Below, piece after piece: positions 181 through 63,748 of a DNA stretch of 64,000 bases (position 1 is the stretch's first letter; each line of letters begins with the position of its first letter). Source of the DNA: Candidatus Lokiarchaeum ossiferum (GTDB lineage Archaea; Asgardarchaeota; Lokiarchaeia; Sigyniarchaeales; Promethearchaeaceae). Both the position numbers and the translations under genes were made by a program. The DNA is taken from the NCBI GenBank assembly GCA_025839675.1, contig CP104013.1, positions 3,105,121 to 3,169,120 of the forward strand, given 5' to 3'. The notes below the pieces were generated by a model, which did not search any database, had not been told where the DNA came from, and worked only from the letters and a program-made list of their open reading frames with translations.

Positions 181-687
181 TTAATTCTTAAGTTTTATTG
201 AATTAACACCTTTTCGTACTTTAACAGCGCATCCACTATTACTTGAAAGAATCAAATTCACCGGAGCATTCAATTTACCAATCGCTAGTAGTTCATCCGA
301 TTCGTCAACTACAAAGACTTCATCACCAATTTTAAGATTTTTATCAAGCAATTCAACATGCTGAGAGAAGACAGATTTACCTTGTCTAATAAAATCTGCT
401 ACATCATGTTGTACTTGGATTCGGTTATTTGGATTTGGAATTTTTTTTAAAATTCTAAGAGCTGCATAAAGTGTGAGTGAAAAAGTTCCGAAAGGAGATC
501 TATAAGTAGATTGTAATTCTCCTTGATAGAATATTTGCTTCACTTTACCAGTTCTTCTAGAAAACTTGATGACCATATCTTCAAAAGGTTCTAAAAATAA
601 ATCAGCAATATTTTCACTGAATTGGTAGCTGAAAATTTGATGTAAAACATGAAATAATTGAGCTTTAGATAAAGATTGCATCTTCAT
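181..687 (-). CDS. PUA-domain protein, possibly a Nip7-like ribosome biogenesis factor (N-terminal pre-PUA plus C-terminal PUA)
   Basis: 168-aa ORF. The C-terminal segment FVVDESDELLAIGKL...GCAVKV resembles PUA beta-strands, and the size matches archaeal Nip7. Confidence 0.4.
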   Translation of the reverse strand: MKMQSLSKAQLFHVLHQIFSYQFSENIADLFLEPFEDMVIKFSRRTGKVKQIFYQGELQSTYRSPFGTFSLTLYAALRILKKIPNPNNRIQVQHDVADFIRQGKSVFSQHVELLDKNLKIGDEVFVVDESDELLAIGKLNAPVNLILSSNSGCAVKVRKGVNSIKLKN

Positions 688-2683: not shown

Positions 2684-2947
2684 CTAATAAGAAATAAATT
2701 CATACAACGAAATATTCTTTTTTTCGAGTCTATGAAATTGAGTTAATTCTTGTTCAGTAGTGATTATTTCATAATCACGAATTGAGAAATTATAGTCCAT
2801 TATAATAATAAATTGATGGGAACATACAGTTCCACTTTTGATAGGGAATTTAAGCAAGGAACCTGCATCAAAATTAAAAATATCATCTGAAAGAGTGATT
2901 CTCCGGGATTTAGAACAAACCGGACATATTATTCTAACTTTACGCAT
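2684..2947 (-). CDS. Small putative zinc-ribbon protein (hypothetical)
   Basis: 87-aa ORF with a CPVC...C.H cysteine pattern. Weak support, and it sits in an AT-rich intergenic region next to the rRNA. Confidence 0.2.
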   Translation of the reverse strand: MRKVRIICPVCSKSRRITLSDDIFNFDAGSLLKFPIKSGTVCSHQFIIIMDYNFSIRDYEIITTEQELTQFHRLEKKNISLYEFISY

Positions 2948-3139
2948 TTTTAGATCAATTATTTTTCAAAATTTTAATTTTAAATTTCTATATTTTTTAT
3001 CAATAAAAATATATGAACCAATATCAAAAGTAGTAAAATCAGCCCATGGCAAAGTCCTGTTGTACCAATTGTATTAGCTCTGTATGAAATCCGGTTCCTT
3101 GGCTGATTCAAAGCCAGGGTCCATATGTTCCTTTTCCAG

Positions 3140-6330
<3,191 letters not shown>

Positions 6331-12613: not shown

Positions 12614-13330
12614 ATGTCTAATAAACGCATCTTGTTAAAAGTCGGTGGATCATTGCTTTTTGATAAAAACTTAGAAATTCGTGAAGAAATCGTTAAAAAT
12701 TTTGCGCAAATATTAAAAAACGCAAAATCTGTTGTTTCAGTAGTAGTTGGCGGAGGAAAAATTGCACGTACATATATTAATGCAGCACGTGCACTTGATG
12801 CTGGGGAATCTCTCTGTGATACTTTTGGTATCGAAGTTTCTCGTCTCAATGCAAGGCTTTTGATAGCTGCTTTGGAGGATAAAGCATACCCTGAACCTAT
12901 AACTAACTTAAAAGAAGCTCGATCTTCAACACTCTGGAATAAAATCTTAGTAGCAGGAGGATTTGTCCCAGGACAAAGCACAACATCAGTTACTTTTGAA
13001 ATGGCAGAAGCTTTGAAAGCAACTGATGTTTTAATTCTTACAAATGTTGATGGAATATACGATAAAGACCCAAATAAATTTCCAACTGCTTCTAAATTTG
13101 ACGAAATTGGTATCAAAAAATTAGAAGAGGTGATTTATGGGGAAGGGGGCAGTTCCCAATCAGCAGCGGGTGAATACCGCATTTTTGATGCAGTGTCTTT
13201 ACAAATTTTAAAACGAAGTCGTTTAGCTGTCAGACTCATCAATGGGGAAAAATTCGAAGAATTAAAACAGCTATTAGTTGAGGAAGACTTTGAGAATCTC
13301 ATTGGCACCAAAATCCTCCACTCCTTATAA
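12614..13330 (+). CDS. pyrH: UMP kinase, archaeal type (amino-acid kinase family)
   Basis: KVGGSLL N-terminal motif and VVVGGGKIAR...DTFGIEVSRLNARLLIAAL, typical of UMPK. Isopentenyl phosphate kinase is the alternative. Confidence 0.65.
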   Translation: MSNKRILLKVGGSLLFDKNLEIREEIVKNFAQILKNAKSVVSVVVGGGKIARTYINAARALDAGESLCDTFGIEVSRLNARLLIAALEDKAYPEPITNLKEARSSTLWNKILVAGGFVPGQSTTSVTFEMAEALKATDVLILTNVDGIYDKDPNKFPTASKFDEIGIKKLEEVIYGEGGSSQSAAGEYRIFDAVSLQILKRSRLAVRLINGEKFEELKQLLVEEDFENLIGTKILHSL

Positions 13331-13415
13331 CTACGAAAGGGATCATTTCAGAAAAAATAAAAACAATGGAACTTTAATTACCATAAGTTTATTTAAACGC
13401 AATTTTTTTTCATTT

Positions 13416-13549
13416 GCAGGGATAGCCAAGCCTGGTCAATCTCCTATAGGCGCAAAAAATTTAGCGTCACACTCTTTTGGAGGACTATCGGCGCTGGACT
13501 CAAGATCCAGTCCTGTAGGGGTACGTGCGTTCGAATCGCACTCCCTGCA
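13416..13549 (+). tRNA. tRNA-Leu (anticodon CAA) with a roughly 50-nt non-canonical intron in the D-loop (about 13440 to 13489)
   Basis: Acceptor GCAGGGA/TCCCTGC, D-arm GCC-AAGCCTGGTCAA[insert]GGC, anticodon stem-loop CTGGA-CTCAAGA-TCCAG, long variable arm, T-arm GTGCG-TTCGAAT-CGCAC, discriminator A. CCA is not encoded. Confidence 0.75.
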
Positions 13550-13636
13550 CTTATTTTTAAAACATTAAACATCTCTCTAAAAATTTTGAAATAGGTACTA
13601 AAAAAAACTTATAAAACAGTAGGGACGAAGAATTGA

Positions 13637-37271: not shown

Positions 37272-37381
37272 TGGTAGCGGGAGGAGGATTTGAACCACCC
37301 GATCTCAGGGTTATGAGCCCTGCAGCCTAGACCAGATTTGACTTATAAAGTGAAACACCTTATAATCTAGCCCATCCCGCT
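37272..37381 (-). tRNA. Initiator tRNA-Met (CAT) with a roughly 35-nt insertion (putative non-canonical intron) in the D-arm; CCA encoded
   Basis: The reverse complement reads AGCGGGA-TG-GGCTAG[ATTATAAGGTGTTTCACTTTATAAGTCAAATCTGGT]CTAGGC-TG-CAGGG-CTCATAA-CCCTG-AGATC-GGTGG-TTCAAAT-CCTCC-TCCCGCT-A-CCA. The A1:U72 pair and AGCGGG start are typical of archaeal tRNAi. Exact intron borders are unresolved. Confidence 0.7.
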
Positions 37382-39661: not shown

Positions 39662-40630
39662 ATGAAGTGTCAATATTGTTCAAAACCAGCGGTGTATCAT
39701 CGAAAAATTTCAAATGAAACGGTTTGTAAGGAACATTTTTGCACTACGATTGAAAACAAAATACGTAAAACTGTTAGAAAGTACAATATGTTCAGCCCAA
39801 CGGAAAAAATAGTTGTGGGCGTTTCTGGAGGAAAAGATTCTTTAGTTTTACTTTATAATGTAATGAAACTACAACAAAGATATCATCAATCGCCTCCCAT
39901 TGAAGCAATATTAATTGACGAAGGCATTGAGGGATATCGCTACGAAAGTACTGAAATTGCAAAACAAATGTGTAGAATTTGGAATGTAAAGCTTCATATT
40001 GTCAAATTTAAGGAAAATTTTGGCAAATCACTGGATGAAATAATTCCTAAATTACCCAATTTGAAGATAAATGCATGTACAATCTGTGGCACAGTAAGAA
40101 GACATCTTTTAAATAAAAAAGCAAAATCTCTACAAGCAGACAAACTTGCAATTGGACATAATCTGGATGATCAAACTGAAACATTCCTTCAAAATATTGT
40201 TCGAAATGATCTAAAAAGGATTTTACAGCATCCTCCGAATGGGAATATTACTGATCCAGATTCATTTTTTATTCCAAGAGTCAAACCCCTTATGCAAGTA
40301 CCAGAAGCGGAAATAAGTCGTTATTGTTACTACATGGATATACCTATTCAAACCACACCTTGTCCTTATGTTGAGAAATTTTTCATTCTCAGGAAAGAAA
40401 TTCAAAATTTCATTAATGCATTGGAAGATCAAAGTGCTGAAATTAAATACAACCTACTGAAAATGAATGAAAAAATTATTGATCATACAAAAATTGAAAT
40501 TGATCAAGATACTTCTTTTGATCCCCATGACCACCGTAATTTTTGTATCAAATGTAAAAGTCCATGCGGAGAAAAAAGGAAATTATGCTATTTTTGTGAA
40601 TTGAAAGAAAGTTTAAATTGCAACATCTAA
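39662..40630 (+). CDS. tRNA 2-thiolation PP-loop ATPase (NcsA/Ncs6/TtuA family)
   Basis: N-terminal zinc finger CQYC...CKEHFC, PP-loop VGVSGGKDS, central CTICG..RR, C-terminal CIKCKSPCG...CYFCE. Confidence 0.7.
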   Translation: MKCQYCSKPAVYHRKISNETVCKEHFCTTIENKIRKTVRKYNMFSPTEKIVVGVSGGKDSLVLLYNVMKLQQRYHQSPPIEAILIDEGIEGYRYESTEIAKQMCRIWNVKLHIVKFKENFGKSLDEIIPKLPNLKINACTICGTVRRHLLNKKAKSLQADKLAIGHNLDDQTETFLQNIVRNDLKRILQHPPNGNITDPDSFFIPRVKPLMQVPEAEISRYCYYMDIPIQTTPCPYVEKFFILRKEIQNFINALEDQSAEIKYNLLKMNEKIIDHTKIEIDQDTSFDPHDHRNFCIKCKSPCGEKRKLCYFCELKESLNCNI

Positions 40631-43865: not shown

Positions 43866-44543
43866 TTAATTTTCTGGTTCTATATCGATAAACTCAATTA
43901 GACTCAGAATATTCTTTAATATCTCATCCCGGTCAATATTTGACTCAGCAACTAATAATTTTTGCACATTAGCTCGAGTTTCAGGATGTTTTGGATTGTT
44001 TTCACAAGCAGGACCTTTAATCAAACTCAATTCATATAGCCCAACTTTTTGGCTGATTTTAATAATGTCCAACTTGTCAAAACCGATAAGTGGACGAACC
44101 ACAGGAACTTCTTTATTAATTTGATGAACCGCATATAAATTATCTAAGGTCTGGGAAGCCTGCTCTCCTAAAATATCACCATTCACAATCATCGAAGCTT
44201 TATAAAAATGAGTTAAATATACTGCGGTATGAATCATGGTCCGCTTGCAAATAACGCATGTTAACTTCGGTTCGCATTTCTCTTTAAAAACTTCAACTAT
44301 CGCATCATAATCCACAAAGTGTAAACGCATCTTTCGTTTGGTTAATTCAACCAATTTTTTTCCGATCTGAATTATTTTTTCTTTATTTAAGTTCCTATTT
44401 TCTTTGCCATTAAGAAATGAAAGTCCAAAACAATTATACCCTTGTTTCATGATAAGATAGGAAGCGATGGGGCTATCTAATCCAGTGGATAATAAAGACA
44501 CAAAAGAAGGAGATATATCGAGAAAATCAGTTTCAGAAAGCAT
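43866..44543 (-). CDS. ThiI-like PP-loop ATPase domain protein (stand-alone ThiI C-terminal domain, with a degenerate SGG to STG motif)
   Basis: LLSTGLDSPIASYL aligns with the ThiI SGGxDSPVA PP-loop. No THUMP domain is present. Confidence 0.45.
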   Translation of the reverse strand: MLSETDFLDISPSFVSLLSTGLDSPIASYLIMKQGYNCFGLSFLNGKENRNLNKEKIIQIGKKLVELTKRKMRLHFVDYDAIVEVFKEKCEPKLTCVICKRTMIHTAVYLTHFYKASMIVNGDILGEQASQTLDNLYAVHQINKEVPVVRPLIGFDKLDIIKISQKVGLYELSLIKGPACENNPKHPETRANVQKLLVAESNIDRDEILKNILSLIEFIDIEPEN

Positions 44544-48966: not shown

Positions 48967-51900
48967 TTAAACAATTTCAATCCAAAAAGCTTTTGTTCCA
49001 TGATAATCTATGGTGAAAGTCTTAGCAAATAAGTCGGTGTCCGAAGGAATAAATGTCTCAAATTTTAAAGAAAATGATTCTCCTTCTTCAAATTTTAATT
49101 GAGATTCAAATTTAAGAGTTATCGGCCCAACAGGAATTGTGGTCCAAGCACCATAGTTTCGATTATACTCATGATCATTCACCATTTCAATTTCCCAAGG
49201 ATTATTTGGTAATAACTCCTCAGTTATACCGATTTGTTCACGTTGAGAGTAATATTGAGATCTGGGATCAAAAGTAATCCCTGGATAATCTGTATTGAAT
49301 TCACCTAAGAATTTTCTGAAGCGAAGGATTTCTTTGCTAGGATCTTGCTCCAAAATAATCCTTTGATAAGCGTGAACAGAATTGGCATCTTCGTATTTGT
49401 ATCCTATTCCTTTAACGTTTCCCCAATATTCAATTCCAACTATCACATCTTCTTCAATATTAAGGATAGGATTTTTAACAGTGAATGAGACTTTTTCTAA
49501 TTCCCCTAATTCAACATCAATACCTGCACCTCCTGTATCTTTAGATCCAATAGAAACACCGGCTTTTAGTTCAATTTTTTTTGTAGAAAAAGATGTTAAA
49601 CCTGGTGTTATATCCCAATCCAAATTAATCCCATTTGGAGATGTTGGAATATAGATTCGATATTCTGGAATGACAATCTTTTCAGAAGATATCAAATCCA
49701 CCGAATTTTCAACTGCCTTTCCAAGTTTTATGTTATCCATATAGACTTGGAAGGAAGCATCATTAGTATTACTTGTATAGATTTCGAGTTCCGTTACATC
49801 CCACATTTCAGTGCTGGCACGAGGTTCATCAGCGATCTTCACACCATCAACCCAAGCTTGCCATTGATTATTATCCATATCCATTAGTAAATCGATTTTA
49901 TACATGCGATTTGATTCTGGCAAACAATAAATATCATCAGGACCAATATAACTGTTGCCATATACATCATTAGTGACCGAAAGAACGTTTTCTGGAAAAT
50001 CACCATAAGTTTGGTGCAAACTTAATCTAATATAATCTTCGTAGGAAACAATATCATTATCTTTGAAAATGATTGTAAAATCTGGAATGCCAGTGTATCC
50101 GATTTCAAATGTGAAAAGATATTTTCCATAATTATCCATTTCAATATCTTTACTAATTTTCACTTTTTTATTATTTAAAATTCCTCCAGTACTGGAATCT
50201 ACAAATTCTATAACCCTTCCATAATAATCAGTTATTGGAGAAATTATAACATTAACAGAACAATCTGTTCCTTCAGAAATAGTATAACCAGAAGGATTTG
50301 TTCCAATACCTGCATTCTCATAATTATCCGTAACAGGGTATCCAGCATCCTTTGGATTAGAAAAATACAACTTGATCTCGTCATCATCAGTAAACCCATC
50401 ACTATCAGTATCTTCTAATCCAGGATTCGTAGTAAGTTCATAATGCTCATATCCGTCATTATATGTATCACCATCAGAATCTGGATTTGTAGGATTAAGG
50501 TTCACATAACCTTCATATTCATAGATGCCAGTAGCTTCAGAGCTTAAATCATCTCGTACAAAATCTAATTCTTGCTTATCAGTCAATCCATCAAAATCTG
50601 AATCAATTTCTGAGGGATTAGAATAATATGTTTTGTAGAATTTTGGTCGAGAATTTGGATCTGAATAAATTAAATCATATCCAGTTACTTCTTCGCTATC
50701 AGTTAAACCATCTTCATCTTTATCTGCTAAAGCATTCAAAGGATTTGTATTGTATACTAAAACTTCATCTCCATCAGATATACCATCATTATCTGAATCA
50801 GAATCACTTGGAGATAAATCATCTAACCTAGAATAATGAGCTTCATAGTTTCCATCCCATATATTAAACCAATTATAAGAATATTCTTCATAATTGGACA
50901 AATCATCATTATCAGTATCCCTATCCACATTTGGAAGATGGAAATAGCTTCTGTATCCTTCAGAAGATACTCCTAACCCATCAATTCCAAAATTCATAGC
51001 ATCATATCCACTATGTGTGTACATCCCAAGCGAGTTGATGTAGGAATAAGAAAGAACTGGAATATCACTTCCCACTTTTTGACCATCAATCCAAGCATCA
51101 ACTTGATTATTGCTGAAATCTAATTCAATGTGAACTTGATACCATTGATTCAATTGATAATCAAGAATTGGAATCCAAGTTCCTGTATCTCGTCTAATTC
51201 CAAGATGACCACCCCAGATTGGCATGTAAAATGGTTGTCCTGATCCGTGAAAAGTTAGATATGCATATCCATTTGATGAAGGCGATGGAGAATACCACCA
51301 GAAGTCAATAGAATCACCATCCTGACTCATAGTATTAAAACTGACAGAAGCGGTTGGACTTGTTGTTGGTGTGTTTCCTTGGGCAAGATATAATGCATTG
51401 GGATGATTTTCAATATTTTTAATTGTTGCAGTTGCTGTTCCAGGATTATAAGTCCACTCTTGCCAATTTGTGGTTCCAATTATTTTGAAGCTTTCAATAT
51501 CGGGATGATTTGAAAATGCTTCATACCCTTGGGAGGAAACTCCTAAACTATCAAATCCAAAATTCATTTTTTGTTCAGTACCCTGTGTATACATGAAAAT
51601 ATTGTCAATTTCAGAATATGGAAGCACTGGAATATCTGATAGAGTTTTTATTCCATTTGCCCATAAATCCACTTCATTATTTGTGAAGTCAAATTCAACG
51701 TGCATATGATACCAGGTTGACCATTCAAAATTGAAATATTCCCATGCACTTGTATCCTTTCTTATTCCAAAATGATTTGACCATATTGGGAAGTAAAAGG
51801 GCCGTGAACTCCCATCTTGCAAGCAAATATATGCATAACCAATCGTATCGGAAGAAGGAGAATACCACCAAAAATCAATATAATCATTATCTTGATTCAC

Positions 51901-53325
51901 CGCAGGAAAAGACACAGCTACAGTTGGACTAGTTATTGAATTAACATGATCTTCTTGGGAAAGATAGAGAGAAGTCGGATGATCTCCAATATTCGTAATA
52001 GTAGCAACTTCCGTCCCAGATTGAATATTAAAATCATTCCATTCAATACTATTTTCAACAAAGAAGCTATCAATCGTATAATGATTATTATAAGCTATAT
52101 ACCCTTCAGAAGACACACCCAGAGCATCAAAGCCAAAATTGGTATCACCAAGATCACTGTGGATATACATATTGATGGAATTAATGAAGGAGTAATCTAG
52201 GACTGAAACATCAACAAGTGATTTTTCCCCATCAACCCATAAATCCACTTCATTATTCGTAAAATCAAATTCAACATGCACATGATACCACGTTGAATAA
52301 TCAAAATTGAAGTAGTTACTCCAGCTTCCAGAACTATCGCGAATTCCAAAGTGATTAGCCCATATAGGAAAGTAGAAGGGTTGTCCTGTATCTTGTTTAA
52401 ATGTAATATATGCGTACCCATCGGAACCAACTGAAGGCGAAAACCACCAAAAGTCAAGATAATCTTGATCGTCATTCAATGTATTGAAATTAATGGATGC
52501 TGATGGATTAGTGGTTACTGGATCTTCTTGAGATAAATAGAGTGCATTATAGCGGCCATCAATATCAGTCAATACCGCTAATTCTGAACCTTGAGATATA
52601 CTCCAGCGGTTCCAATCGATGCACTCACTTTGATCATATCCTATCCCACTACCATCCATAGGATTTAGAGGATTTAAATTATTGATATATTCCCATCCAT
52701 CAGGCATTCCATCTTGATCTGTATCCATATTGTTGGGATCTGTTCCCAAAGTATTCGTTTCGAGCCAATCATTTAACCCATCATTATCAGTATCATCAAC
52801 AAGATAAACGTAAATCGACTCAATTCTTTTTCCTGTTAAGTAAAAGCATTCTTCCCCATCAGCATATTCGGGAGAATCACCTAAGGATTGAATGTGTCCA
52901 CGATATCGGATTTGATATTTATACTCAGGACAGTTTACTAGTCGAATTGCAAATTTTTCAATCTGTAGTGCCTGTCCTCTTGTTCCAGCATAATTTCCAT
53001 CACTTATCCACTGTGTCCACCCATTTCCTTGAATATATACTTTGTATTCAATGTCACAATCAAATGTATTGTCTACAATACTTAATTGAATCCCTTCTAA
53101 TCTTTTTGCAATACCTTTATGACCAACCCATTGGTGGTCAGTTCCAACAATATCCCCATAGGATTGTTGATGAACCAAAACGGATAAAATTTGGCTACTA
53201 ACGTTTGGTACGTTCAACTCCCTTTGAGATTCTTCTTGATCCTCTGTAAATCCAAATTCTCCAGAATTGGATAGAGTTAGGCTAAGAAGAAGTAAAAATG
53301 CAATATATTTTTGTTGATTTTTCAT
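48967..53325 (-). CDS. Giant secreted or surface protein (1452 aa): signal peptide, thrombospondin type-3-like Ca-binding repeats, three tandem ~190-aa lectin/ConA-like repeats, C-terminal beta-rich domain
   Basis: N-terminus MKNQQKYIAFLLLLSLTLS is signal-like. Repeats DFWW(F/Y)SPS...GYAY...PFYFPIW.NHFGIR...WYH.H.EFDF.NNEVD occur three times (about nt 50913 to 52617). Asp-rich DxDxDG motifs are present (DTDNDGLNDWLE, DSDNDGISDGDE, DSDGDTYNDGYE, DTDSDGFTDDDE). Confidence 0.8.
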   Translation of the reverse strand: MKNQQKYIAFLLLLSLTLSNSGEFGFTEDQEESQRELNVPNVSSQILSVLVHQQSYGDIVGTDHQWVGHKGIAKRLEGIQLSIVDNTFDCDIEYKVYIQGNGWTQWISDGNYAGTRGQALQIEKFAIRLVNCPEYKYQIRYRGHIQSLGDSPEYADGEECFYLTGKRIESIYVYLVDDTDNDGLNDWLETNTLGTDPNNMDTDQDGMPDGWEYINNLNPLNPMDGSGIGYDQSECIDWNRWSISQGSELAVLTDIDGRYNALYLSQEDPVTTNPSASINFNTLNDDQDYLDFWWFSPSVGSDGYAYITFKQDTGQPFYFPIWANHFGIRDSSGSWSNYFNFDYSTWYHVHVEFDFTNNEVDLWVDGEKSLVDVSVLDYSFINSINMYIHSDLGDTNFGFDALGVSSEGYIAYNNHYTIDSFFVENSIEWNDFNIQSGTEVATITNIGDHPTSLYLSQEDHVNSITSPTVAVSFPAVNQDNDYIDFWWYSPSSDTIGYAYICLQDGSSRPFYFPIWSNHFGIRKDTSAWEYFNFEWSTWYHMHVEFDFTNNEVDLWANGIKTLSDIPVLPYSEIDNIFMYTQGTEQKMNFGFDSLGVSSQGYEAFSNHPDIESFKIIGTTNWQEWTYNPGTATATIKNIENHPNALYLAQGNTPTTSPTASVSFNTMSQDGDSIDFWWYSPSPSSNGYAYLTFHGSGQPFYMPIWGGHLGIRRDTGTWIPILDYQLNQWYQVHIELDFSNNQVDAWIDGQKVGSDIPVLSYSYINSLGMYTHSGYDAMNFGIDGLGVSSEGYRSYFHLPNVDRDTDNDDLSNYEEYSYNWFNIWDGNYEAHYSRLDDLSPSDSDSDNDGISDGDEVLVYNTNPLNALADKDEDGLTDSEEVTGYDLIYSDPNSRPKFYKTYYSNPSEIDSDFDGLTDKQELDFVRDDLSSEATGIYEYEGYVNLNPTNPDSDGDTYNDGYEHYELTTNPGLEDTDSDGFTDDDEIKLYFSNPKDAGYPVTDNYENAGIGTNPSGYTISEGTDCSVNVIISPITDYYGRVIEFVDSSTGGILNNKKVKISKDIEMDNYGKYLFTFEIGYTGIPDFTIIFKDNDIVSYEDYIRLSLHQTYGDFPENVLSVTNDVYGNSYIGPDDIYCLPESNRMYKIDLLMDMDNNQWQAWVDGVKIADEPRASTEMWDVTELEIYTSNTNDASFQVYMDNIKLGKAVENSVDLISSEKIVIPEYRIYIPTSPNGINLDWDITPGLTSFSTKKIELKAGVSIGSKDTGGAGIDVELGELEKVSFTVKNPILNIEEDVIVGIEYWGNVKGIGYKYEDANSVHAYQRIILEQDPSKEILRFRKFLGEFNTDYPGITFDPRSQYYSQREQIGITEELLPNNPWEIEMVNDHEYNRNYGAWTTIPVGPITLKFESQLKFEEGESFSLKFETFIPSDTDLFAKTFTIDYHGTKAFWIEIV

Positions 53326-53794: not shown

Positions 53795-56014
53795 TTACTT
53801 TAACTTCAGTTTAATATTGTCAATTAATTTTTCTTTGATAAATCCCTCTTCTCGAATTAATCGAAAATATTGCCCTTCCTCAAATTTAAACCCAAATTGA
53901 TCCCCACACTCCATGAAAACTTTGTGGCGCAATACCTTCCCAGGAAAATGTTTCCACTCTTCACCACTGGCAACTATTTCCTGTATTCGGTCTGAATATT
54001 TTGCAAACTGTTTGAGATAATACGGTTTATCTACAGATATATGACATTTTTCGCTGGTTAGTATATTCACAGTATTAAGAAAATTATCCAGCAATTCATT
54101 TTCCGATGTTGTACCACCCTTGATTCCCTCGATTATCGGTTTTATTAACTCTTTTTTTTCATCCTCCGAAAATACCTTTGGAAACTCCTCGAAAAAGAAT
54201 TTCAACTTCTTTGTCATCTTCATTGTCTCATCGATAGAAGTTTTGATTAGATTAGACACCTTTTCAAGGGTAATCTCTTCCTCTGAATCTGGATTGGATC
54301 TTTCAATAAGTTCTTTGAGTAGCTCAGGATTGAGGTATAAATTTTCGATTTCCCGCACTGGGAGTAGTACAATTTTATCTCGGATTTCTTTTGCCTTCTT
54401 ATTGCGAATTTCCTTATTACCTTCATCATTATCCAAAATAATGAGAAATTTGAAGTTTTTATTGGTAAAATTCTCTATCAACTGTGCATTTGCCCAATAA
54501 TGTAAATCTCGTTTGCCTCCTAACGGTTGTAGTATGATTCTTTGCTCTTCTAAAATTTCCGGAATTGCTTGTTTGAAAAACTCTACATCATCCTTTCCTT
54601 CCACCAATATCATCCCATTATTCATGAGATAATCTGAAGGTTTGATGCCTAAATCTTCAAAAACTTGTGGTATATTTTCTGCTTTTTCATTATATACATG
54701 AGTTATTTTATCACTTCGTTTTACCCTATGAATGCTCCATCCCTTTTTCATACTATCCAAGAAATATGGTGAATGAGTAGTAATTAAAACTTGAAATCGG
54801 CTCAAATTTTCCTCGATTATTGATAGGAGTATTTTTTGCAAATCAGGATGTATAAAAAGTTCCGGTTCTTCAATTAACAGCAATCCATTTTCTTTTGTTT
54901 CTAATATTGCAACTAAAATTGTTACCAATTGCTGAATCCCCTTCCCCAATTTGTCAAAAGTAAGTTTGTACTCTAAATCTTCTTCTAATACATAAGGAAT
55001 TGTCAAGGGATATTTCTCAATAGGAATGTTTGTTTCTGGGTAATAATCAATATTATAAAGAGAATAATCTGGTTGATGTAAAAAATTTTGATTGATCTCT
55101 TTAATATTAGGATACAATTTGCTCAGATAGTGGTTGAGTTTTTCTAATTTTTCTTTCTCATTTGTGTTATAGCTAAGAATTTTTAGTGGGACATTTTCTC
55201 CATCATATTCAAAATGAAAAGGCTTTGTAGAAGCCTCCACCTTATAGAATGGTAGGAATGAACGATCTTCAACTACCATATTCATCTTGGAATAGAAATC
55301 TATAATCGGTGATAAGAAAAAGTGCAATAAAGGATTGCTATGAACTCGTTTATCAAAAATGGATCTATTATTCAGAAGTTGATTGCCAGGATTCGGAAAT
55401 CCAGTATTGAAAATCGAATTTGGAAAAAAATGCCATTCAAATGAATTACTATTAGCAATGAGTTTTTTCCTTGGTTTGCTAAGTTCCATGTTTCTAATAG
55501 AATATTCATGTCCTACTGAAGTCCTATCCACAAAATTATAGGAAATCAGTCCATTTTTGAAAGTAACTCTTCTAATAAAAATTTCATAACTTGACCCAGG
55601 AGCTACTTCAAATTCATATACAATATTTTCAAATGCCTCCTCTAATAATATCGATTCCTCAGGGTTGAATCGATTATCTTTGAAAAATTTAAATAATTTT
55701 GGGTTTTTCAAGTAGTCTTTTGAATGTTCCCTAAATAGCCTTGATGCTTGATCACGAAAATATTCCAAAATCTTTGATCTATCAAATTTGAATTCTAAAT
55801 TTATCTTTACCGGATGCTTCTGGGAATTGAACTTAATCAATTTTTTATCTAAAAGCTTCCCCGACCTTATACTCTTTAAAATTTTAAATAAATTGCTTTT
55901 CCCTGAATTATTAGGTCCAATTATAACGCCTAAATCCCCAATATTCTCGAATACTTGGTGATCGAAACTTAGCAGATTGAATATTTCTATTCGATGCAAC
56001 CGCGAAATTGTCAT
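53795..56014 (-). CDS. OLD-family nuclease: N-terminal ABC-type ATPase plus C-terminal TOPRIM domain (class 1 OLD / Gabija GajA-like)
   Basis: Walker A GPNNSGKS, Walker B LLLIEEPELFIHP, H-loop ITTHSPYF. TOPRIM MILVEGKDDVEFF and ILDNDEGNKE (DxD). Confidence 0.8.
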   Translation of the reverse strand: MTISRLHRIEIFNLLSFDHQVFENIGDLGVIIGPNNSGKSNLFKILKSIRSGKLLDKKLIKFNSQKHPVKINLEFKFDRSKILEYFRDQASRLFREHSKDYLKNPKLFKFFKDNRFNPEESILLEEAFENIVYEFEVAPGSSYEIFIRRVTFKNGLISYNFVDRTSVGHEYSIRNMELSKPRKKLIANSNSFEWHFFPNSIFNTGFPNPGNQLLNNRSIFDKRVHSNPLLHFFLSPIIDFYSKMNMVVEDRSFLPFYKVEASTKPFHFEYDGENVPLKILSYNTNEKEKLEKLNHYLSKLYPNIKEINQNFLHQPDYSLYNIDYYPETNIPIEKYPLTIPYVLEEDLEYKLTFDKLGKGIQQLVTILVAILETKENGLLLIEEPELFIHPDLQKILLSIIEENLSRFQVLITTHSPYFLDSMKKGWSIHRVKRSDKITHVYNEKAENIPQVFEDLGIKPSDYLMNNGMILVEGKDDVEFFKQAIPEILEEQRIILQPLGGKRDLHYWANAQLIENFTNKNFKFLIILDNDEGNKEIRNKKAKEIRDKIVLLPVREIENLYLNPELLKELIERSNPDSEEEITLEKVSNLIKTSIDETMKMTKKLKFFFEEFPKVFSEDEKKELIKPIIEGIKGGTTSENELLDNFLNTVNILTSEKCHISVDKPYYLKQFAKYSDRIQEIVASGEEWKHFPGKVLRHKVFMECGDQFGFKFEEGQYFRLIREEGFIKEKLIDNIKLKLK

Positions 56015-56114
56015 ATATTATTAGTTTTGGACAAAGGTGTAGTTAAATTTTTAGATTAAAACTCAATTTCCTTTAAACTTTGATAAGGAAAAAAAAAACA
56101 CGTATATAATTAAA

Positions 56115-56420
56115 TCAATATCCATATTTTTGCATGATATCAGTAATATCTCTTCCATAGTATTTCACGTAGGCCACAATTCGCCCATAGGTATCAATCG
56201 CCACTTGTTTAATGGTAACCAAAGATCCTACAGGTATTAAAGAGGATAATATTCTTTTTGCTTTGAAATAACCAGATTCTCCCTTTTCAGGTGTGTTAAT
56301 ATTAGCAATTCGAACATATTTATTACCCGTTATAATGAAAGTATCTCCATCTACAATCGCAGCTACTTTTTTTCGATATATATTTGATGTTGGGTATTTC
56401 TTCGAAATTGAAGATGTCAT
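56115..56420 (-). CDS. Staphylococcal-nuclease (SNase/thermonuclease)-like protein, short form
   Basis: VDGDTF...VRIANINTPE...YGRIVAYV follows the SNase OB-fold motifs. Overlaps the upstream gene by 4 nt (ATGA). Confidence 0.6.
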   Translation of the reverse strand: MTSSISKKYPTSNIYRKKVAAIVDGDTFIITGNKYVRIANINTPEKGESGYFKAKRILSSLIPVGSLVTIKQVAIDTYGRIVAYVKYYGRDITDIMQKYGY

Positions 56421-57049
56421 ATTTTATCACCTCCATCCAAACTCCTAAGATATGTTTTAAATTGATTTTCTGAAAGCGCAAAGCAGTTATTAGAATTGTG
56501 ATACTTGTTAATATCTAGCAACCGCTCGTCAGTATAAAAGGAACCACTGCAAATGGCATAAAACTGCCCAGATTCATTTGATTCCGAATTTTCAAACAAG
56601 CGAACAATATTTTGCATCCTACTTGATTGAGAACCTCCACTCCCATCTGAATGAAATCGAACAAAATAGGACCTCTTTCCTTTAATTTTACATGAAAGAT
56701 GAATTGAACTTGATTTTACATTCAATCGCTTTTTTGTGATCTTTCCGTCTGTAATGTAGAGTCTTGGAGTTCTCCAATGAGTGATCAAATTTGAAATAAA
56801 AGTCTGGTTGGTCAGATATTTCGTAAATTCCCTCAGATAAGTATTTCCTCGCTTCAAATTTAGGTCCTTACTTACGCATATTGCAGCGAATAATTTATCT
56901 TCAAGAAATTTCTGTTCTATATCCTTAATTGGAATTCCCGTACGGTCATGTAACCGGATAAGCTGTTTTACCTTATGGCCCTTCATAATTCTCTTCCGAA
57001 TTATGGAGATTTGCGTGGTGACGTCCTTTCTAATCTGAAATTGGTACAT
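56417..57049 (-). CDS. Hypothetical protein co-transcribed with the SNase-like and OLD nuclease genes
   Basis: 210-aa basic protein with no recognisable motif. Shows translational coupling (4-nt overlap) to the SNase-like gene. Confidence 0.4.
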   Translation of the reverse strand: MYQFQIRKDVTTQISIIRKRIMKGHKVKQLIRLHDRTGIPIKDIEQKFLEDKLFAAICVSKDLNLKRGNTYLREFTKYLTNQTFISNLITHWRTPRLYITDGKITKKRLNVKSSSIHLSCKIKGKRSYFVRFHSDGSGGSQSSRMQNIVRLFENSESNESGQFYAICSGSFYTDERLLDINKYHNSNNCFALSENQFKTYLRSLDGGDKI

Positions 57050-57288
57050 TAATTAATTACTTCCTTTACTGAGTGGTGGTTTGTGTGTGACAGAATCAAT
57101 CCTTCGAGTAAGCTATTTGATCAATCTACGTTGACTTACGCGCGCGATCGTTACCCGTTACAATAACGAAGGTCACACGCGTATTTAAATCAAGGTATTT
57201 ATAGAGAAGTACCCTTCCTCAACCGACAAAAATTCAAAAATTTCACTGTTGGATAGAAAAACACGCAAGAATTCCAATATTTCATAAT

Positions 57289-58161
57289 GTGAATATTTTT
57301 AATATTTCACTCGTACTGTTAATATTGTTAGTGAAAAAAAAAATGAATTCCTTAGATTTAGTTGAAGAACGAAATATTTTAGTCGTTCCAATCGGTTTAG
57401 AAAATGAGCGGGTTGTTAAAAGCTGCCAAATTTACCCTGTGAACGTCATTTATCTCTTGAAGAGTAACTTTGAATCTAATTCTGATCATAAGGAAAAAAA
57501 CTCATCCCAATGGGGAATAGAACAATACTCAAAAACAATTGCATCTGAAGTCATTAAGAAATTTGAAAATACTTTTTTTGAAATTCAACCAAAAAATTGC
57601 CATCTCGGCTCCCTCCCGAGCACAATTTCTATTTTAAATGACATCTATGAAATTGAACAGAAAAAGGGAAAATTGAACAAAATTTACATCAATATCTCCA
57701 CCGCATCCAAATTATTCGCAATTGGGGCCTATATTTTTGCCTCTCAATTCCCCGATATATGCAAACTTTTCTATTTGGCCACAAATAATTATCTTCTCTT
57801 GGAACACTTGAAATCGGAAAAAGGGGATTTAGAAAAATTAAAAACGGAATTTAGAAAATTTGGTCTAACAAAAGGACCTTTCAAAGTTGTGAACATCCCA
57901 ATTCTGAAATCGGACCCTTTTTCAACCGATGAAAAACGATTGATCAATTATTTAGCCCAATTTGACCACATCAATTCGATAAAAGAAATATTGGAAAATC
58001 TCAAAAAGGATACCAACGCTAAAGAAAGAATGAATCTTCGCAGATCCCTTGAAAAACTCGAGAAAAACAATTTGCTGATACTAAAAAAAAGTGGAAAATC
58101 GGTTCAGGTTCTTATATCTGATGAATTGAAACAGCTCGCTGGCTCCTTTATACTGGAGTAG
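57289..58161 (+). CDS. Putative CARF-like (Rossmann) N-terminal domain plus C-terminal winged-helix regulator (Csa3-like architecture)
   Basis: ILVVPIGLENERVV (beta1 plus Gly loop) and NISTASK (a CARF dvTgGtK-like motif). C-terminal INYLAQFDHINSIKEILENL...NNLLILKKSGKSVQV resembles a wHTH. Confidence 0.3.
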   Translation: MNIFNISLVLLILLVKKKMNSLDLVEERNILVVPIGLENERVVKSCQIYPVNVIYLLKSNFESNSDHKEKNSSQWGIEQYSKTIASEVIKKFENTFFEIQPKNCHLGSLPSTISILNDIYEIEQKKGKLNKIYINISTASKLFAIGAYIFASQFPDICKLFYLATNNYLLLEHLKSEKGDLEKLKTEFRKFGLTKGPFKVVNIPILKSDPFSTDEKRLINYLAQFDHINSIKEILENLKKDTNAKERMNLRRSLEKLEKNNLLILKKSGKSVQVLISDELKQLAGSFILE

Positions 58162-58200
58162 CTTATATTCCGCTGTAATTCTTATACGATTCATTCAATT

Positions 58201-59241
58201 TTAAAATAATATCGCAATCACAATCGCCAAAATGGACAGGACCAACTCAATGCGCCATTTCGAAGTTTCTTTCCTATATTTCCGTTTCTCCATTGCATTT
58301 TCAATTCCATCAATGAAATTCTTCAACTCTTCTACCACTTGATCTGGTTCTTGGTTCTGTTTCGAATTGAAATGATATATATACCATGTTTTAACCTTCC
58401 CAAAAATCGCTTTCCATTCGTGTAGCTTTTCCAGTGAAAATATTTCATCATGTAAATCAATCGATATTTCATTCAGCTCTTCCTTATCAAACCCGGTCCC
58501 ATAATATAACTCAATCCATTTTCCATTATTTTGCTTGATTGTTTCAACTATCTCTTCGGAAGGTATCTTTTGTGTAAAAATTTGTCGATATTCTTCAACA
58601 AGATCATTTTCTTTTTCATAAACCCTTAATAAGATAAGATTCTTCGCATTCTCCAAGTTATTAAAGCAAAAAGTGAAATAATTCCTAAAAACTGCACAGA
58701 TATTCACTAGTACGAATACTATAAGACTTATATAAACAAATAGTAGATAATGGTCTTGAGTTTTGATTACAGCATAGTATCCAAAGGCTATAGTGCCTAT
58801 ACTGATAAAAATACTGAAAAGCGTTGAAAAAAAGAGAATATTATGATTCTTATCCTTCCTTAAAAAACTGGTTGAATATTTCAAAATCTGTATTTCCCTT
58901 TCTATTGTTTGTTTTGTATCCTTCGTATTCTTCTTGTCGAAATAATCTAAAAAATCTGAGAGAAATTCATAATTTTTTTCAGTATCCTCGACATTATATG
59001 GTAGTTCTTTCTTTGAAATCCAATAAGAAATTAAAATCCTAAGAAAAATTATAATGACGAATGTCCAAATTATTAATCCTTGCTCGTTTTCATCGAAAGA
59101 TCCTAATATTAAGATCATGCAAAAAATAATTCCATTAATTATTCTGGTTCCTGGAATTTCTGACTTAAATGTGGAGACTTTTTCTTCATATTCCCCGAGA
59201 ATTTTCAAAATATCATTTTTATTTATCTTTTTTTGATTCAT
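58201..59241 (-). CDS. Multi-pass membrane protein (about 5 TM) with a cytoplasmic acidic domain; hypothetical
   Basis: Hydrophobic helices at about aa 33 to 53, 57 to 77, 131 to 151, 157 to 177 and 322 to 344. No catalytic motif recognised. Confidence 0.45.
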   Translation of the reverse strand: MNQKKINKNDILKILGEYEEKVSTFKSEIPGTRIINGIIFCMILILGSFDENEQGLIIWTFVIIIFLRILISYWISKKELPYNVEDTEKNYEFLSDFLDYFDKKNTKDTKQTIEREIQILKYSTSFLRKDKNHNILFFSTLFSIFISIGTIAFGYYAVIKTQDHYLLFVYISLIVFVLVNICAVFRNYFTFCFNNLENAKNLILLRVYEKENDLVEEYRQIFTQKIPSEEIVETIKQNNGKWIELYYGTGFDKEELNEISIDLHDEIFSLEKLHEWKAIFGKVKTWYIYHFNSKQNQEPDQVVEELKNFIDGIENAMEKRKYRKETSKWRIELVLSILAIVIAILF

Positions 59242-59737
59242 CTTATTAAATTAATTGGATTATTATGGATTTTAAGCCATTTATTAGGACTTTAATACAT
59301 TCCATCATTTCTCGATTTATATATGGATAATCAAATTTTTTGAAATCCATTAGAACCGAATGTGTGAGATTTTTTTTATTTTAAATGATTAAAATAGTTC
59401 TAATCAGTAATTTTAGAAAAAAGTCATGGAAACGACCAATTGACAATCAATCGCAAAGTAAATCAATCATGAATTTTAAGAAGAGGCTAAAAGCGCAAAT
59501 GGAAGACTAATAGACTTATAATTAAATGATAACCAATTTTTTTTTTTATTTTCGATTATTAAATGATTCTACTTATTTTTTTTAATCAAGATGGAAAGCA
59601 TGTGGGTGCACAATTTTTTAATCCAAATTTTTTTTTACAAATCTATAATTTTCATTAGTAAAATTGTGTCTATTAGTTTGATTTGAAACATAGGACTGAT
59701 TGATTTAAAATTTGATTCAAATACTTGGGTTTTTGAT

Positions 59738-60421
59738 ATGAAAAAAAAAATATTTGCATATTATCGGATTTCAACTGAGAAACAAAAAAAAAAGAATACT
59801 CAGGAAAATCAGAAAATTGCAATTTATAATTTTGTTGAAGGTTTAGACGTTGAAATTGTGAATGAATTTGAAGATTTGGGTATTTCAGGGGCAGATAATG
59901 ACCGCCCACAATTCAATCTAATGCTTTCTAAATTGAATGAAGTAGAAGGATTAGTAATCTATGATTTAGACCGATTAACGAGAGATTTTGAAATGGGAGT
60001 AAACTTAATGTTTATGTTGAAAAATTCAAAAAAATCTTTGTATATTGCTCGAACCAAAGATATCAAAGATTTTTCAGATGATTCCGAGCAATTAATGACC
60101 ATTATCAAATCATGGGTTTCTGCACTTGAACGAAAGAAAATTAAAGAAAGACAAAAAATAGGAATTCAACGATATAAAGAAACAAAAGGTCGTTGGGGTA
60201 GAAAGAAATCCTTTGGAAAATATAAAAATCCAGAACAATTTTGGAAAAACTATGATATCTATAGAGATTTGGGTATTTCCAAGACATCCTGTGCAAAATT
60301 ATTAGGTGTCTCTCGTTCAACGATGAATAGACGGATAGAAGAACGTGAAATAAATAAGTCGAAAATCAAAACTACCCCAATTAATAACAAAATCAAAGAA
60401 TGGAGCGAACCAAAACTTTAA
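59738..60421 (+). CDS. Small serine recombinase (resolvase/invertase type): catalytic domain plus C-terminal HTH
   Basis: IFAYYRISTEKQ (catalytic Ser motif), DRLTRD, C-terminal HTH ISKTSCAKLLGVSRSTMNRRIE. Confidence 0.8.
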   Translation: MKKKIFAYYRISTEKQKKKNTQENQKIAIYNFVEGLDVEIVNEFEDLGISGADNDRPQFNLMLSKLNEVEGLVIYDLDRLTRDFEMGVNLMFMLKNSKKSLYIARTKDIKDFSDDSEQLMTIIKSWVSALERKKIKERQKIGIQRYKETKGRWGRKKSFGKYKNPEQFWKNYDIYRDLGISKTSCAKLLGVSRSTMNRRIEEREINKSKIKTTPINNKIKEWSEPKL

Positions 60422-60688
60422 AGGAAGTTTTTTTTATAAATTACTCTAATAATCGCTATATCGAAGAATCGAAGAAAAATTGAAATGTTAACGGTAAATT
60501 GAGCTTCCAGAGTGGCTTTTTCTAATTTCTGTCGGCTAATTTTTAAAGTAAAAGGATGAATAACACCTAAGCCCACCGGCCAAGGTGTTATAGAAGAAAG
60601 CCCACCGGCCATCTCCATGTTATTAATCTTCAAGAAAGTATTTAAAGATCACCATACATGTTTTTTATAGGTTTATTTAAAATCAAAA

Positions 60689-61477
60689 ATGATTAGAATG
60701 ATTATTGCATATCTTGACGAAACTGGAGATCCTGTCTATCGAAGGGGTGGCCCTAAATGGTTTGGTATAACTGCCGCAATCTTTCATGATTCAAAATTAC
60801 TTGATGGAATAAATGTGATGAAGTCATTCAATCAAAGTAAATCCGAAGAATATGACTGTGATTTTGAAATACATGCAAGGGAATTTTCCAGCTCGAAAAA
60901 AGAACCTTATAATGCAATGAAAGTTGAAGAAAAAATAGAATTATTTACAGAATGCTTACATACTGTCAAAAATACTGGTGCTTCAATTTGCGGTGTGTTT
61001 GTTGATAAAGTTAAGCATAGTTATTGGCATGGTAAATATGATTTTTTAAAAAATGTAGTTATGAACCTATTTGAAAGGATAGGTAGATATCAGATTGCAA
61101 ATTATCCTAATGAAGCCATTCTGATATTATATGACCAACCTTCTGCCCATTTAAGACCAATTATTAAACAATATTTCAAAGAAAGATTAGAAGTCGGTTC
61201 AAGATATGTCAAACCTGCGTTTTTCTTGAAAGAAATCTTATATGTTGAATCTAAATTTCATCAACCTATTCAAATAGCAGATTTAACAGGATATATTGTA
61301 AGAAGATTGATAGAAAAACGTATAGATGGTACATTTTCCAGTTTTCTAAAGTATGTTGATGACTTGTATAAAATAATTCGACCAATGTTAGATTTCAATC
61401 CAACAACAAAAGAAATATATGGGGCAGGAATTAAAATTATTGAAAGTAATGACAGGAAATATTATGGACGTTTCTGA
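60689..61477 (+). CDS. DUF3800-family protein
   Basis: Hallmark N-terminal IAYLDETGD and C-terminal PIQIADLTGYIV motifs of DUF3800. Confidence 0.7.
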   Translation: MIRMIIAYLDETGDPVYRRGGPKWFGITAAIFHDSKLLDGINVMKSFNQSKSEEYDCDFEIHAREFSSSKKEPYNAMKVEEKIELFTECLHTVKNTGASICGVFVDKVKHSYWHGKYDFLKNVVMNLFERIGRYQIANYPNEAILILYDQPSAHLRPIIKQYFKERLEVGSRYVKPAFFLKEILYVESKFHQPIQIADLTGYIVRRLIEKRIDGTFSSFLKYVDDLYKIIRPMLDFNPTTKEIYGAGIKIIESNDRKYYGRF

Positions 61478-63217: not shown

Positions 63218-63748
63218 GTGTTTGAAATTCCGAAAGATGATCTCAATCAAGAAAAAGTCGACTACTTAAAAACCGTCTTCTCCCACAATCGCAGTATGAT
63301 CCAACTTGCAGACAACAAAGCCAGCATTTTAATCCGAATTATTGTAGTTATCCTCCCAATTATTTTTGGAATCGATTCCTACTTAACTACAATTACTCTC
63401 CATAATAGCCTAAAAACCTTTCAATATGTTAGCTTTATCATTTGTATGGTTACCTTCATCATTTCATTCTTCTTATCGACAGGTGTTCTAATGGCTCGAT
63501 TTGCTGAATATGATGATCATATCTTCTTTTCAAATATTGAAAAAGATTCCCTTGAAGATTATCAAAATATTATTGAAGAAATGGATGATTATGTCATTTT
63601 TGAAGATTATATCAAAGAAAATTATGCAATTGCCAAAATCAATAAAAAAAAGTATCAATGCTACAATATTTCCTTTTGGTTCCTTAATGCTGCGGTACTT
63701 TTATTGGTAATTCGATATATCTTATTGTTTACTTACCTTTTTTATTAA
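63218..63748 (+). CDS. Small membrane protein with 3 predicted TM helices and an acidic central loop (hypothetical; possible effector-like)
   Basis: Hydrophobic helices at about aa 36 to 58 and 68 to 92, and a C-terminal one at about 150 to 172. N-terminal MIQLADNKAS motif. Confidence 0.45.
   Translation: MFEIPKDDLNQEKVDYLKTVFSHNRSMIQLADNKASILIRIIVVILPIIFGIDSYLTTITLHNSLKTFQYVSFIICMVTFIISFFLSTGVLMARFAEYDDHIFFSNIEKDSLEDYQNIIEEMDDYVIFEDYIKENYAIAKINKKKYQCYNISFWFLNAAVLLLVIRYILLFTYLFY

Follow-up and report, generated by a model that had tools for sequence, protein, structure and literature searches.

A tRNA-Leu(CAA) gene with a probable bulge-helix-bulge intron in its D-loop in a Lokiarchaeial genome

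Does a stretch of DNA that spells out a leucine tRNA, but breaks off within the D-loop for some fifty nucleotides before resuming, still encode a working tRNA, and if so, how would the interruption be removed? The question is raised by positions 13416-13549 (+) of the window, by which we mean the whole stretch of 64,000 nucleotides analysed here. We suggest that this locus is very probably a functional gene for tRNA-Leu(CAA), whose precursor transcript of ~134 nt contains in its D-loop a bulge-helix-bulge (BHB) intron removed by archaeal splicing. The suggestion draws on the anatomy of the gene, the geometry of the motif, its conservation and covariation, and the exon junction, all of them taken from the window and its homologues; for cleavage, ligation and the enzymes concerned, we infer what would happen from established archaeal tRNA splicing.

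The gene and the motif that bounds its insert

The locus reads GCAGGGA-TA-GCC-AAGCCTGGTCAA-(49 nt)-C-GGC-G-CTGGA-CTCAAGA-TCCAG-T-CCTGTAGGGG-TAC-GTGCG-TTCGAAT-CGCAC-TCCCTGC-A, in which every arm of a class II tRNA-Leu(CAA) is found and nothing is anomalous except for the additional sequence that separates GGUCAA from the 3' strand of the D-stem. The acceptor stem (GCAGGGA/TCCCTGC) consists of seven Watson-Crick pairs, the anticodon arm (CTGGA-CTCAAGA-TCCAG) presents the anticodon CAA at 13501-13503 within the loop CUCAAGA, and the T arm has a 5-bp stem (GTGCG/CGCAC) and the loop UUCGAAU. The marks of a class II leucine tRNA are present as well: a Leu anticodon, a long variable arm with a stem of its own, a 3-bp D-stem (GCC/GGC) with a long D-loop and a discriminator A73, located at 13549. 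The variable stem (48-50/55-57) covaries among homologues, and the D-stem strands lie 13 nt apart once the gene is spliced. A TATA-like element upstream (Table 1), also found upstream of the gene in the relative L027 at 90% identity, is a probable archaeal promoter, and the T-rich tract that follows the gene is probably a transcription stop.

Standard tools pass over the gene. ARAGORN makes no tRNA call across the whole 64-kb window at default settings, and Rfam at gathering score reports no tRNA at the locus, its only match in the window being to archaeal LSU rRNA; when the search is extended up to E 10, a partial tRNA-Sec match of 15 bits, below gathering, appears over the 3' half of the gene. 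Such a miss on an unspliced gene is expected for a D-loop intron, and hence is no evidence against the gene. When 13440-13488 is deleted in silico, ARAGORN calls an 85-nt tRNA-Leu(CAA). Fitted to ten spliced or intronless homologues, the cloverleaf pairs in 98.7% of cells, with 16 of its 23 pairs changed on both sides, as against 30-50% pairing when the partners are slid by one to three columns. The preliminary description of the locus, as a tRNA-Leu(CAA) that keeps all of its tRNA elements around a D-loop insert of about 50 nt, is therefore borne out, the insert measuring 49 nt.

Table 1. Features of the tRNA-Leu(CAA) locus (window coordinates; class II D-loop numbering as used here for A21 and C22, precursor numbering for the bulges)
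Feature	Coordinates	Strand	Description
TATA-like A/T-rich element TTTATTTAAA	13389-13398	+	18-27 nt upstream of mature 5' end; probable promoter, read from sequence
5' exon	13416-13439	+	acceptor 5' strand GCAGGGA, U8 A9, D-stem GCC, D-loop AAGCCUGGUCAA through A21
Outer helix h, D-loop GCC (nt 15-17)	13430-13432	+	precursor pairing with GGC 13490-13492 (75-77); local fold
BHB central helix, exon strand GGUC	13434-13437	+	pairs with GACU 13483-13486; strict scan, local minimum-free-energy fold, orthologue table
5' bulge A-A/U (A23 A24 / U25)	13438-13440	+	predicted 5' cleavage after 13439
BHB intron, 49 nt	13440-13488	+	3' part of D-loop, between A21 and C22
Inner helix h', 5' strand CUCC	13441-13444	+	pairs with GGAG 13479-13482; strict scan and local fold
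AGGCGC motif inside intron	13448-13453	+	copies start of exon 2
Inner helix 3' strand GGAG (13479-13482), then central helix intron strand GACU	13479-13486	+	scan, fold, orthologue table
3' bulge A-U/C (A72 U73 / C74)	13487-13489	+	predicted 3' cleavage after 13488
3' exon	13489-13549	+	C22, D-stem 3' strand GGC, G26, anticodon arm, long variable arm, T arm, acceptor 3' strand, discriminator A
T-rich tract TTATTTTT	13551-13558	+	immediately 3' of gene; probable stop, judged from the bases

A strict BHB scan (a 4-bp helix between two 3-nt bulges that lie on opposite strands, with the cut after the second bulge base) yields the register (24,73) in precursor numbering, in which GGUC-AAU-CUCC (13434-13444) pairs with GGAG-GACU-AUC (13479-13489). 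A BHB at the bounds of the insert had been suggested from the outset, with folding of the junctions named as a check, and the local fold indeed finds the motif. Its central helix is made up of G19.U71, G20-C70, U21-A69 and C22-G68, and its inner helix h' of C26-G67, U27-A66, C28-G65 and C29-G64. The outer helix h is the weakest element, with 2 bp in the strict register (U18.G75, C17-G76) and 3 bp if U18 is left unpaired or is paired to A72; the U18-A72 pair turns the central helix into one of 5 bp with a 2-nt bulge. Unconstrained local folds of the window sequence and of its counterparts in Promethearchaeum syntrophicum MK-D1 and L026 all show the BHB together with an exon-side GCC/GGC helix. 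The BHB is absent from the unconstrained minimum-free-energy fold of the whole precursor (-48.7 kcal/mol), and forcing it together with the other three arms gives -45.7 kcal/mol, a difference of 3 kcal/mol. When the intron was shuffled 100,000 times, 0.05% of the shuffles (P ~5e-4) produced a strict BHB in the exact register whose inner helix had 4 bp or more, and 1.1% produced such a motif at any nearby register.

The locus thus shows what is expected of an archaeal BHB intron, namely a complete tRNA after exon joining, a 4-bp helix with two 3-nt bulges, and both helices h and h', and the motif is near the strict hBHBh' form. The preliminary description holds that a non-canonical intron position requires a relaxed-specificity endonuclease; for the motif of the window, which has its two bulges and its two flanking helices, this goes too far, and in the Methanomassiliicoccales a perfect BHB occupies the same site. 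Nor is the motif built from the two short duplicated segments first proposed for it. Both segments exist, ATAGGCGC at 13446-13453 and ATCGGCGC at 13487-13494, but they are direct repeats and hence cannot pair with each other, and ATAGGCGC lies inside the intron, not at its border. The insert is also unlike a self-splicing intron of group I or II, whose ribozyme core is hundreds of nucleotides long: it measures 49 nt, and no Rfam intron family matches it even at E up to 10.

We propose that in the precursor of ~134 nt the D-loop GGUC (nt 19-22) would pair with GACU near the 3' end of the intron to form the central helix, and that the D-loop GCC (nt 15-17) would borrow the later D-stem GGC (13490-13492, the 3' strand of the D-stem in the mature tRNA) for an exon-side helix, with the D-arm giving way to the BHB. 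EndA, the splicing endonuclease of archaea, would then cut both bulges, after 13439 and after 13488; these positions follow the BHB rule of cleavage after the second bulge nucleotide and agree with the junction of an intronless homologue. An RtcB-type ligase would join the exons into ...GGUCAA-CGGCGC..., after which the D-arm would refold. In archaeal tRNA splicing an RtcB-type ligase usually circularises the intron, and the excised intron would probably be circularised here too. Addition of CCA after splicing is proposed because CCA is not encoded by the gene.

Neither EndA nor RtcB was found in the window by a Pfam scan of 50 ORFs together with the eRF1 and UMP kinase flanking genes, a scan that covered the ORFs other than a 1452-aa ORF at 48967-53325, the ORF at 63218-63748 and minor overlapping ORFs. 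The enzyme side of the proposal therefore rests on the literature for other Asgard genomes, for which a broad-specificity (alpha-beta)2 EndA with an L1 loop has been reported (PMC5829648). On the published view, it is relaxed motifs without one of the bulges that call for enzymes of the (alpha-beta)2 and epsilon2 types (PMC5829648, PMC6379350). More generally, the BHB is a transplantable splice signal, and the non-canonical sites at which it is found include 20/21 and 22/23 (PMC4090602).

Orthologous introns in the Lokiarchaeia and beyond

A pattern scan of species-representative genomes recovered 18 tRNA-Leu(CAA) genes with an insert after GCCTGGTCAA, including those of P. syntrophicum MK-D1 and of a second Promethearchaeum genome. 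Four more Lokiarchaeia copies, together with two intronless homologues rich in GC, came from metagenomes scanned with a pattern of the exons only, and further syntenic loci were reached via homologues of the UMP kinase, whose gene lies directly upstream of the tRNA-Leu(CAA) gene in the window. The kinase of the window is 100% identical to a protein of Candidatus Lokiarchaeum ossiferum, so that the window matches a cultured Asgard archaeon of the Lokiarchaeia. The order UMP kinase - tRNA - 112-aa ORF is found in MK-D1 and in seven other Lokiarchaeia lineages. At the MK-D1-type loci the neighbourhood proteins are 57-78% identical to those of the window; over the syntenic Lokiarchaeia loci the kinase is 59-90% identical, and a D-loop intron is located at the same site in every Lokiarchaeia orthologue found. 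In L034 and L035 (~50% kinase identity) the tRNA no longer adjoins the UMP kinase.

The exons and the introns of these genes have fared differently. The 5' exon is identical across five orthologous lineages, while the Lokiarchaeia introns range from 24 to 62 nt and are mostly unalignable, with the BHB retained. In order of decreasing kinase identity, L027 (90%) has a 49-nt intron and is identical to the window in gene and intron; L028/L029 (73%) has a 62-nt intron with a strict BHB two bases further upstream; L030 (68%) has a 49-nt intron; L031, from Harpocratesius (62%), has a 25-nt D-loop intron and in addition a canonical 37/38 intron; L032 (61%) has a D-loop intron of ~25 nt with a relaxed motif, again accompanied by a canonical intron; and L033 (59%) has a 30-nt intron with a relaxed motif. 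The MK-D1 orthologue (NZ_CP042905.2, L007:3893-4025, minus strand), which like the gene in the window has a UMP kinase upstream and a 112-aa ORF downstream, offers the most direct comparison. Its exons are near-identical and its intron of 48 nt sits at the same site, with the same GGUC/GACU pairing, the same 3' end GGAGGACUA and an internal AGGCGC. It differs in its inner helix, in which an A is bulged or mismatched while the CUCC/GGAG of the window is perfect, and in the remainder of the intron interior; compensatory differences are also found in the anticodon stem (C27-G43 against U27-A43) and in the variable arm.

In nine sequences from the Lokiarchaeia and Methanomassiliicoccales, the BHB pairs are kept in 88.9% of cells, as against 28-54% with slid partners, in an alignment that leans toward the BHB model because it was cut at splice sites of our own choosing. 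All four pairs of the inner helix change on both sides among orthologues, its variants being CUCC/GGAG, AAUC/GAUU, GAU/AUC, AUUU/AAAU, UUCA/UGAA and GAUG/CAUC. On the intron strand of the central helix, GACU alternates with GAUU, GACC and GGCC, wobble-compatible changes that keep the pairing; L028, in which the register is shifted, has CCAG. The second inner-helix pair is replaced by a C x A mismatch or disturbed by a bulged A in the MK-D1 group, L026 and L030, and one central-helix pair is mismatched in each of L032 and L033; the motifs of some orthologues are consequently relaxed, not strict, and the BHB of the window is the cleanest among its close relatives. Across these comparisons it is structure, not sequence, that is conserved among the orthologous introns.

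Inserts at this site are not confined to the Asgard archaea. The intron position had been called phylogenetically restricted, which is right in part, yet tRNA-Leu(CAA) genes with an insert at the same site are found in Asgard, Nitrososphaerota/Caldarchaeum, Methanomassiliicoccales and DPANN genomes. In the Methanomassiliicoccales (L006, L008, L009, L011, L015) the gene shares with that of the window the site after GGUCAA, the GGUC strand, the AAU bulge and the GCC/GGC helix, but its intron, of 27-28 nt and with 8 bp in the inner helix, is unrelated in sequence, and the host belongs to a euryarchaeal order. For the D-loop inserts of the DPANN, Caldarchaeum and Nitrososphaerota genomes, the strict BHB scan yielded no clean motifs.

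Protein-spliced D-loop introns at almost the position seen in the window have been described in Methanopyrus kandleri pre-tRNA-Glu(UUC), at 20b/21, and in Aeropyrum pernix pre-tRNA-Thr(UGU) (PMC5829648, PMC3241643). There, as proposed here, EndA cuts a BHB-type motif, although the tRNA identity and the host lineage are different. In M. kandleri, moreover, the motif is a relaxed HBh' whose efficient removal needs a loop-bearing (alpha-beta)2 enzyme, in contrast to the motif of the window with its two bulges and flanking helices. Within the Asgard archaea, introns, often non-canonical, have been reported in 92-95% of the tRNA genes of Atabeyarchaeia and Freyarchaeia (PMC11291895). The Lokiarchaeia resemble these and the Thermoproteales, which likewise have intron-rich tRNA sets with non-canonical and multiple introns in lineages with a broad-specificity EndA: both tRNA genes in the window are interrupted in the D-loop, in what is a 64-kb sample of the genome, and the tRNA-Leu genes of L031 and L032 have two introns.

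Other readings of the insert

It might be asked whether the intron is more than a spacer. The AGGCGC within it recurs in the MK-D1 group and in L026 and, as AGGCAC, in L030, so that the motif is kept in four lineages despite an intron interior that has diverged beyond alignment. In composition-preserving shuffles that ignore shared descent, a common GC-rich 4-mer in four interiors has P ~0.0007, and a common 6-mer in three interiors P ~0.003. AGGC is exactly complementary to the D-loop GCCU (nt 15-18), and the GCGCY of exon 2 is complementary to GGCGC. The motif could accordingly be imagined to mimic the start of exon 2 or to pair with the D-loop GCCU, with a part in precursor folding or quality control, or else in some role of the circular intron. 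Several observations speak against this. The shorter introns of L028 and L031-L033 do not contain the motif, its partner within the intron is not conserved, and either candidate pairing with the exons would cross the BHB or compete with it. No small RNA of the C/D type is apparent either: a C box has the consensus RUGAUGA and a D box CUGA, the archaeal tRNA-Trp intron being the example of an intron that bears such an sRNA, and neither UGAUGA nor CUGA occurs within 13440-13488, which also matches no Rfam family; the single C/D snoRNA family listed by Rfam falls outside the intron and, at 12 bits, stays below its gathering score of 80. We consider a functional role of this kind, as an exon mimic or as an alternative-conformer element, unlikely.

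The D-loop introns of Asgard archaea and Methanomassiliicoccales do share the same exon bases, the GGUC helix strand and the GCC/GGC outer helix. One could go further and posit a single ancient tRNA-Leu(CAA) D-loop intron that predates the split of the Asgard, Nitrososphaerota/Caldarchaeum, Methanomassiliicoccales and DPANN lineages, with AGGCGC marking a role in precursor folding, a scenario that we regard as speculative and rather improbable.

If the insert is a BHB intron, the exact position of the cuts may still be questioned. Because the central helix can extend by U18-A72, a register (23,74) is possible, in which the helix is UGGU/ACUA (U18-A72 to U21-A69) and the bulges are CAA and UCG; removal of 51 nt (13439-13489) would then leave an 83-nt tRNA with an 11-nt D-loop, GGUCA-GGC. 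In its favour, the strict scan reports this register as well (four pairs in the central helix, 5 bp in the inner one), the local fold contains a 5-bp helix with U18-A72 among its pairs, and ARAGORN accepts the product as tRNA-Leu(CAA). However, it would delete A21 and nt 22, and the register (24,73) is preferred because in the intronless homologues L021/L022 the D-stem strands are 13 nt apart and the sequence is GGTCAACGGCGC, exactly the spliced junction predicted by (24,73), and because L028, with its unambiguous strict BHB two bases upstream, gives the same GGUCAACGG product. L031 and the Methanomassiliicoccales genes likewise give GGUCAA-(C/U)GG in the main register, and in MK-D1 the junction slides over four positions with the product unchanged. 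We therefore hold the (23,74) cuts to be quite improbable; the mature tRNA would read GGUCAACGGC with (24,73) and GGUCAGGC with (23,74).

That the 49-nt insertion inactivated the gene and left a tRNA pseudogene with its processing lost is very unlikely indeed. It would account for the lack of calls by standard tRNA finders, but the intact exons covary as a cloverleaf across lineages in ten homologues, which speaks decisively against decay, and promoter-like and T-tract flanks exist. A decaying pseudogene would, in addition, keep neither the interrupted arrangement nor the BHB, and in at least nine lineages the arrangement is retained, with synteny, while the intron sequence turns over and the BHB is kept. 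As for the tRNA-Trp(cca) i(37,54) that ARAGORN -i reports over the same coordinates, a tRNA-Trp(CCA) with a 54-nt intron beside the anticodon is next to impossible, being an artefact of a forced anticodon-loop intron: it has a D-stem of only two pairs, puts the intron on the 5' side of the anticodon and counts as intron, to be discarded, the perfect CUGGA-CUCAAGA-UCCAG arm, which covaries among homologues (CUGGA/UCCAG, CCGGA/UCCGG, CGGGA/UCCCG, UUGGA/UCCAA).

Annotation and the second tRNA gene of the window

The D-loop intron of tRNA-Leu(CAA) adds no new mechanism. BHB introns in the D-loop, intron-rich tRNA genes in Asgard archaea and a broad-specificity Asgard EndA are all known already, and the gene in the window is a further example. 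Its practical value is mostly one of annotation, as default tRNA finders skip both the tRNA-Leu(CAA) and the initiator tRNA of the window; an Asgard genome annotated without archaeal models for non-canonical introns would hence seem to lack essential tRNAs, and the under-calling of tRNAs has already been flagged for Asgard and DPANN genomes (PMC5829648). The orthologue series also shows, on a small scale and cleanly, how introns turn over while the BHB constraint is conserved, and does so in the archaeal lineage that is closest to eukaryotes: intron length at the one site runs from 24 to 62 nt, a second, canonical intron is present in some of the genes, and the initiator intron shifts in position.

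The only other tRNA gene in the window is that of the initiator Met tRNA, which also has a D-loop insert. For this gene the strict BHB scan gave only products without G18-G19; the real D-loop is shown by the orthologue L036, and with it a 4-bp helix, G10-C42 to U13-A39, was found by hand. The position of the initiator intron differs between close relatives. The window as a whole has a GC content of ~33%; besides its LSU rRNA, which matches the archaeal model, it encodes a Ras/Arf/Roc small GTPase 2 kb from the tRNA gene.

The tRNA-Leu(CAA) D-loop insert across archaea

An insert immediately 3' of the D-loop bases GGUCAA recurs in the tRNA-Leu(CAA) genes of three further archaeal groups: Methanomassiliicoccales (loci L006, L008, L009, L011 and L015), Nitrososphaerota/Caldarchaeum (L002, L005, L010, L013, L014, L016 and L018) and DPANN (L001, L003, L012 and L017). 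The Methanomassiliicoccales copies form a perfect hBHBh' motif, a bulge-helix-bulge with outer and inner helices, whose inner helix spans 8 bp. Two orthologues, one from a Harpocratesius-like genome (L031) and one from another Lokiarchaeia genome (L032), each hold two introns, the D-loop intron and a canonical 37/38 intron. Within the Lokiarchaeum intron, we note a copy of the start of exon 2, AGGCGC; this hexamer is kept across four intron lineages, in one of them as AGGCAC, whose interiors cannot otherwise be aligned. The 96-aa ORF with a TTG start that spans the whole tRNA-Leu(CAA) gene is almost certainly spurious.

Coordinates of features in the window and at homologous loci
Feature	Position	Strand	Remark
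TGT_C2+PUA protein (archaeosine transglycosylase-type)	184-687	-	tRNA modification
Archaeal LSU rRNA	3137-6321	-	3185 nt
96-aa ORF	13278-13568	+	TTG start
Intron-internal AGGCGC	13448-13453		in tRNA-Leu(CAA)
Initiator tRNA-Met(CAT)	37272-37381	-	sole other tRNA gene in window
Initiator T-stem region	37283-37300	-	6- vs 5-base strands
Initiator D-loop insert	~37338-37366		~29-30 nt
TtuA-like 2-thiouridine synthetase	39662-40630	+	tRNA modification
ThiI-domain protein	43866-44543	-	tRNA modification
Low-GC region	53795-61477		GC 0.29-0.30
Two-intron tRNA-Leu(CAA)	L031:about 2917-3058		Harpocratesius-like genome
Two-intron tRNA-Leu(CAA)	L032:2796-2931	-	another Lokiarchaeia genome

The initiator tRNA gene

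The initiator tRNA-Met(CAT) gene encodes CCA, pairs A1 with U72 and has an anticodon stem with three G-C pairs; ARAGORN did not call it, and its Rfam score of 27 bits lies below the gathering score. It too carries a D-loop insert with an approximate junction, for which a candidate BHB helix can be drawn: G10-C42, G11.U41, C12-G40 and U13-A39, flanked by the bulges AGA and AAA. In the orthologous initiator genes of two other Lokiarchaeia loci (L036 and L037), the D-arm is uninterrupted (GGCU-AGUCUGGUCUA-GGCU), and it is the anticodon loop that holds an intron; the intron site thus varies among close relatives.

In all three Lokiarchaeia initiator genes (window, L036 and L037, respectively), the T-stem is uneven, with six bases in its 5' strand (GGGUGG, GAAUGG, GGGUGG) and five in its 3' strand (CCUCC, CCUUC, CCCCC). 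Together with covariation of the surrounding pairs, this inequality implies a conserved bulged U within the T-stem, a feature that is unusual among tRNAs.

Other genes in the window

The presence of three tRNA-modification genes in the window does not imply a tie to the tRNA-Leu(CAA) intron. The LSU rRNA gene exceeds its model (2987 nt) by about 200 nt of extra sequence, and no adjoining SSU rRNA gene lies in the window. The region of lowered GC resembles a mobile or defence island; its genes comprise an AAA_15/AAA_21 ATPase with DUF4435, a staphylococcal-nuclease-like ORF, an HFX_2341_N protein, a serine resolvase and a DUF3800 protein.
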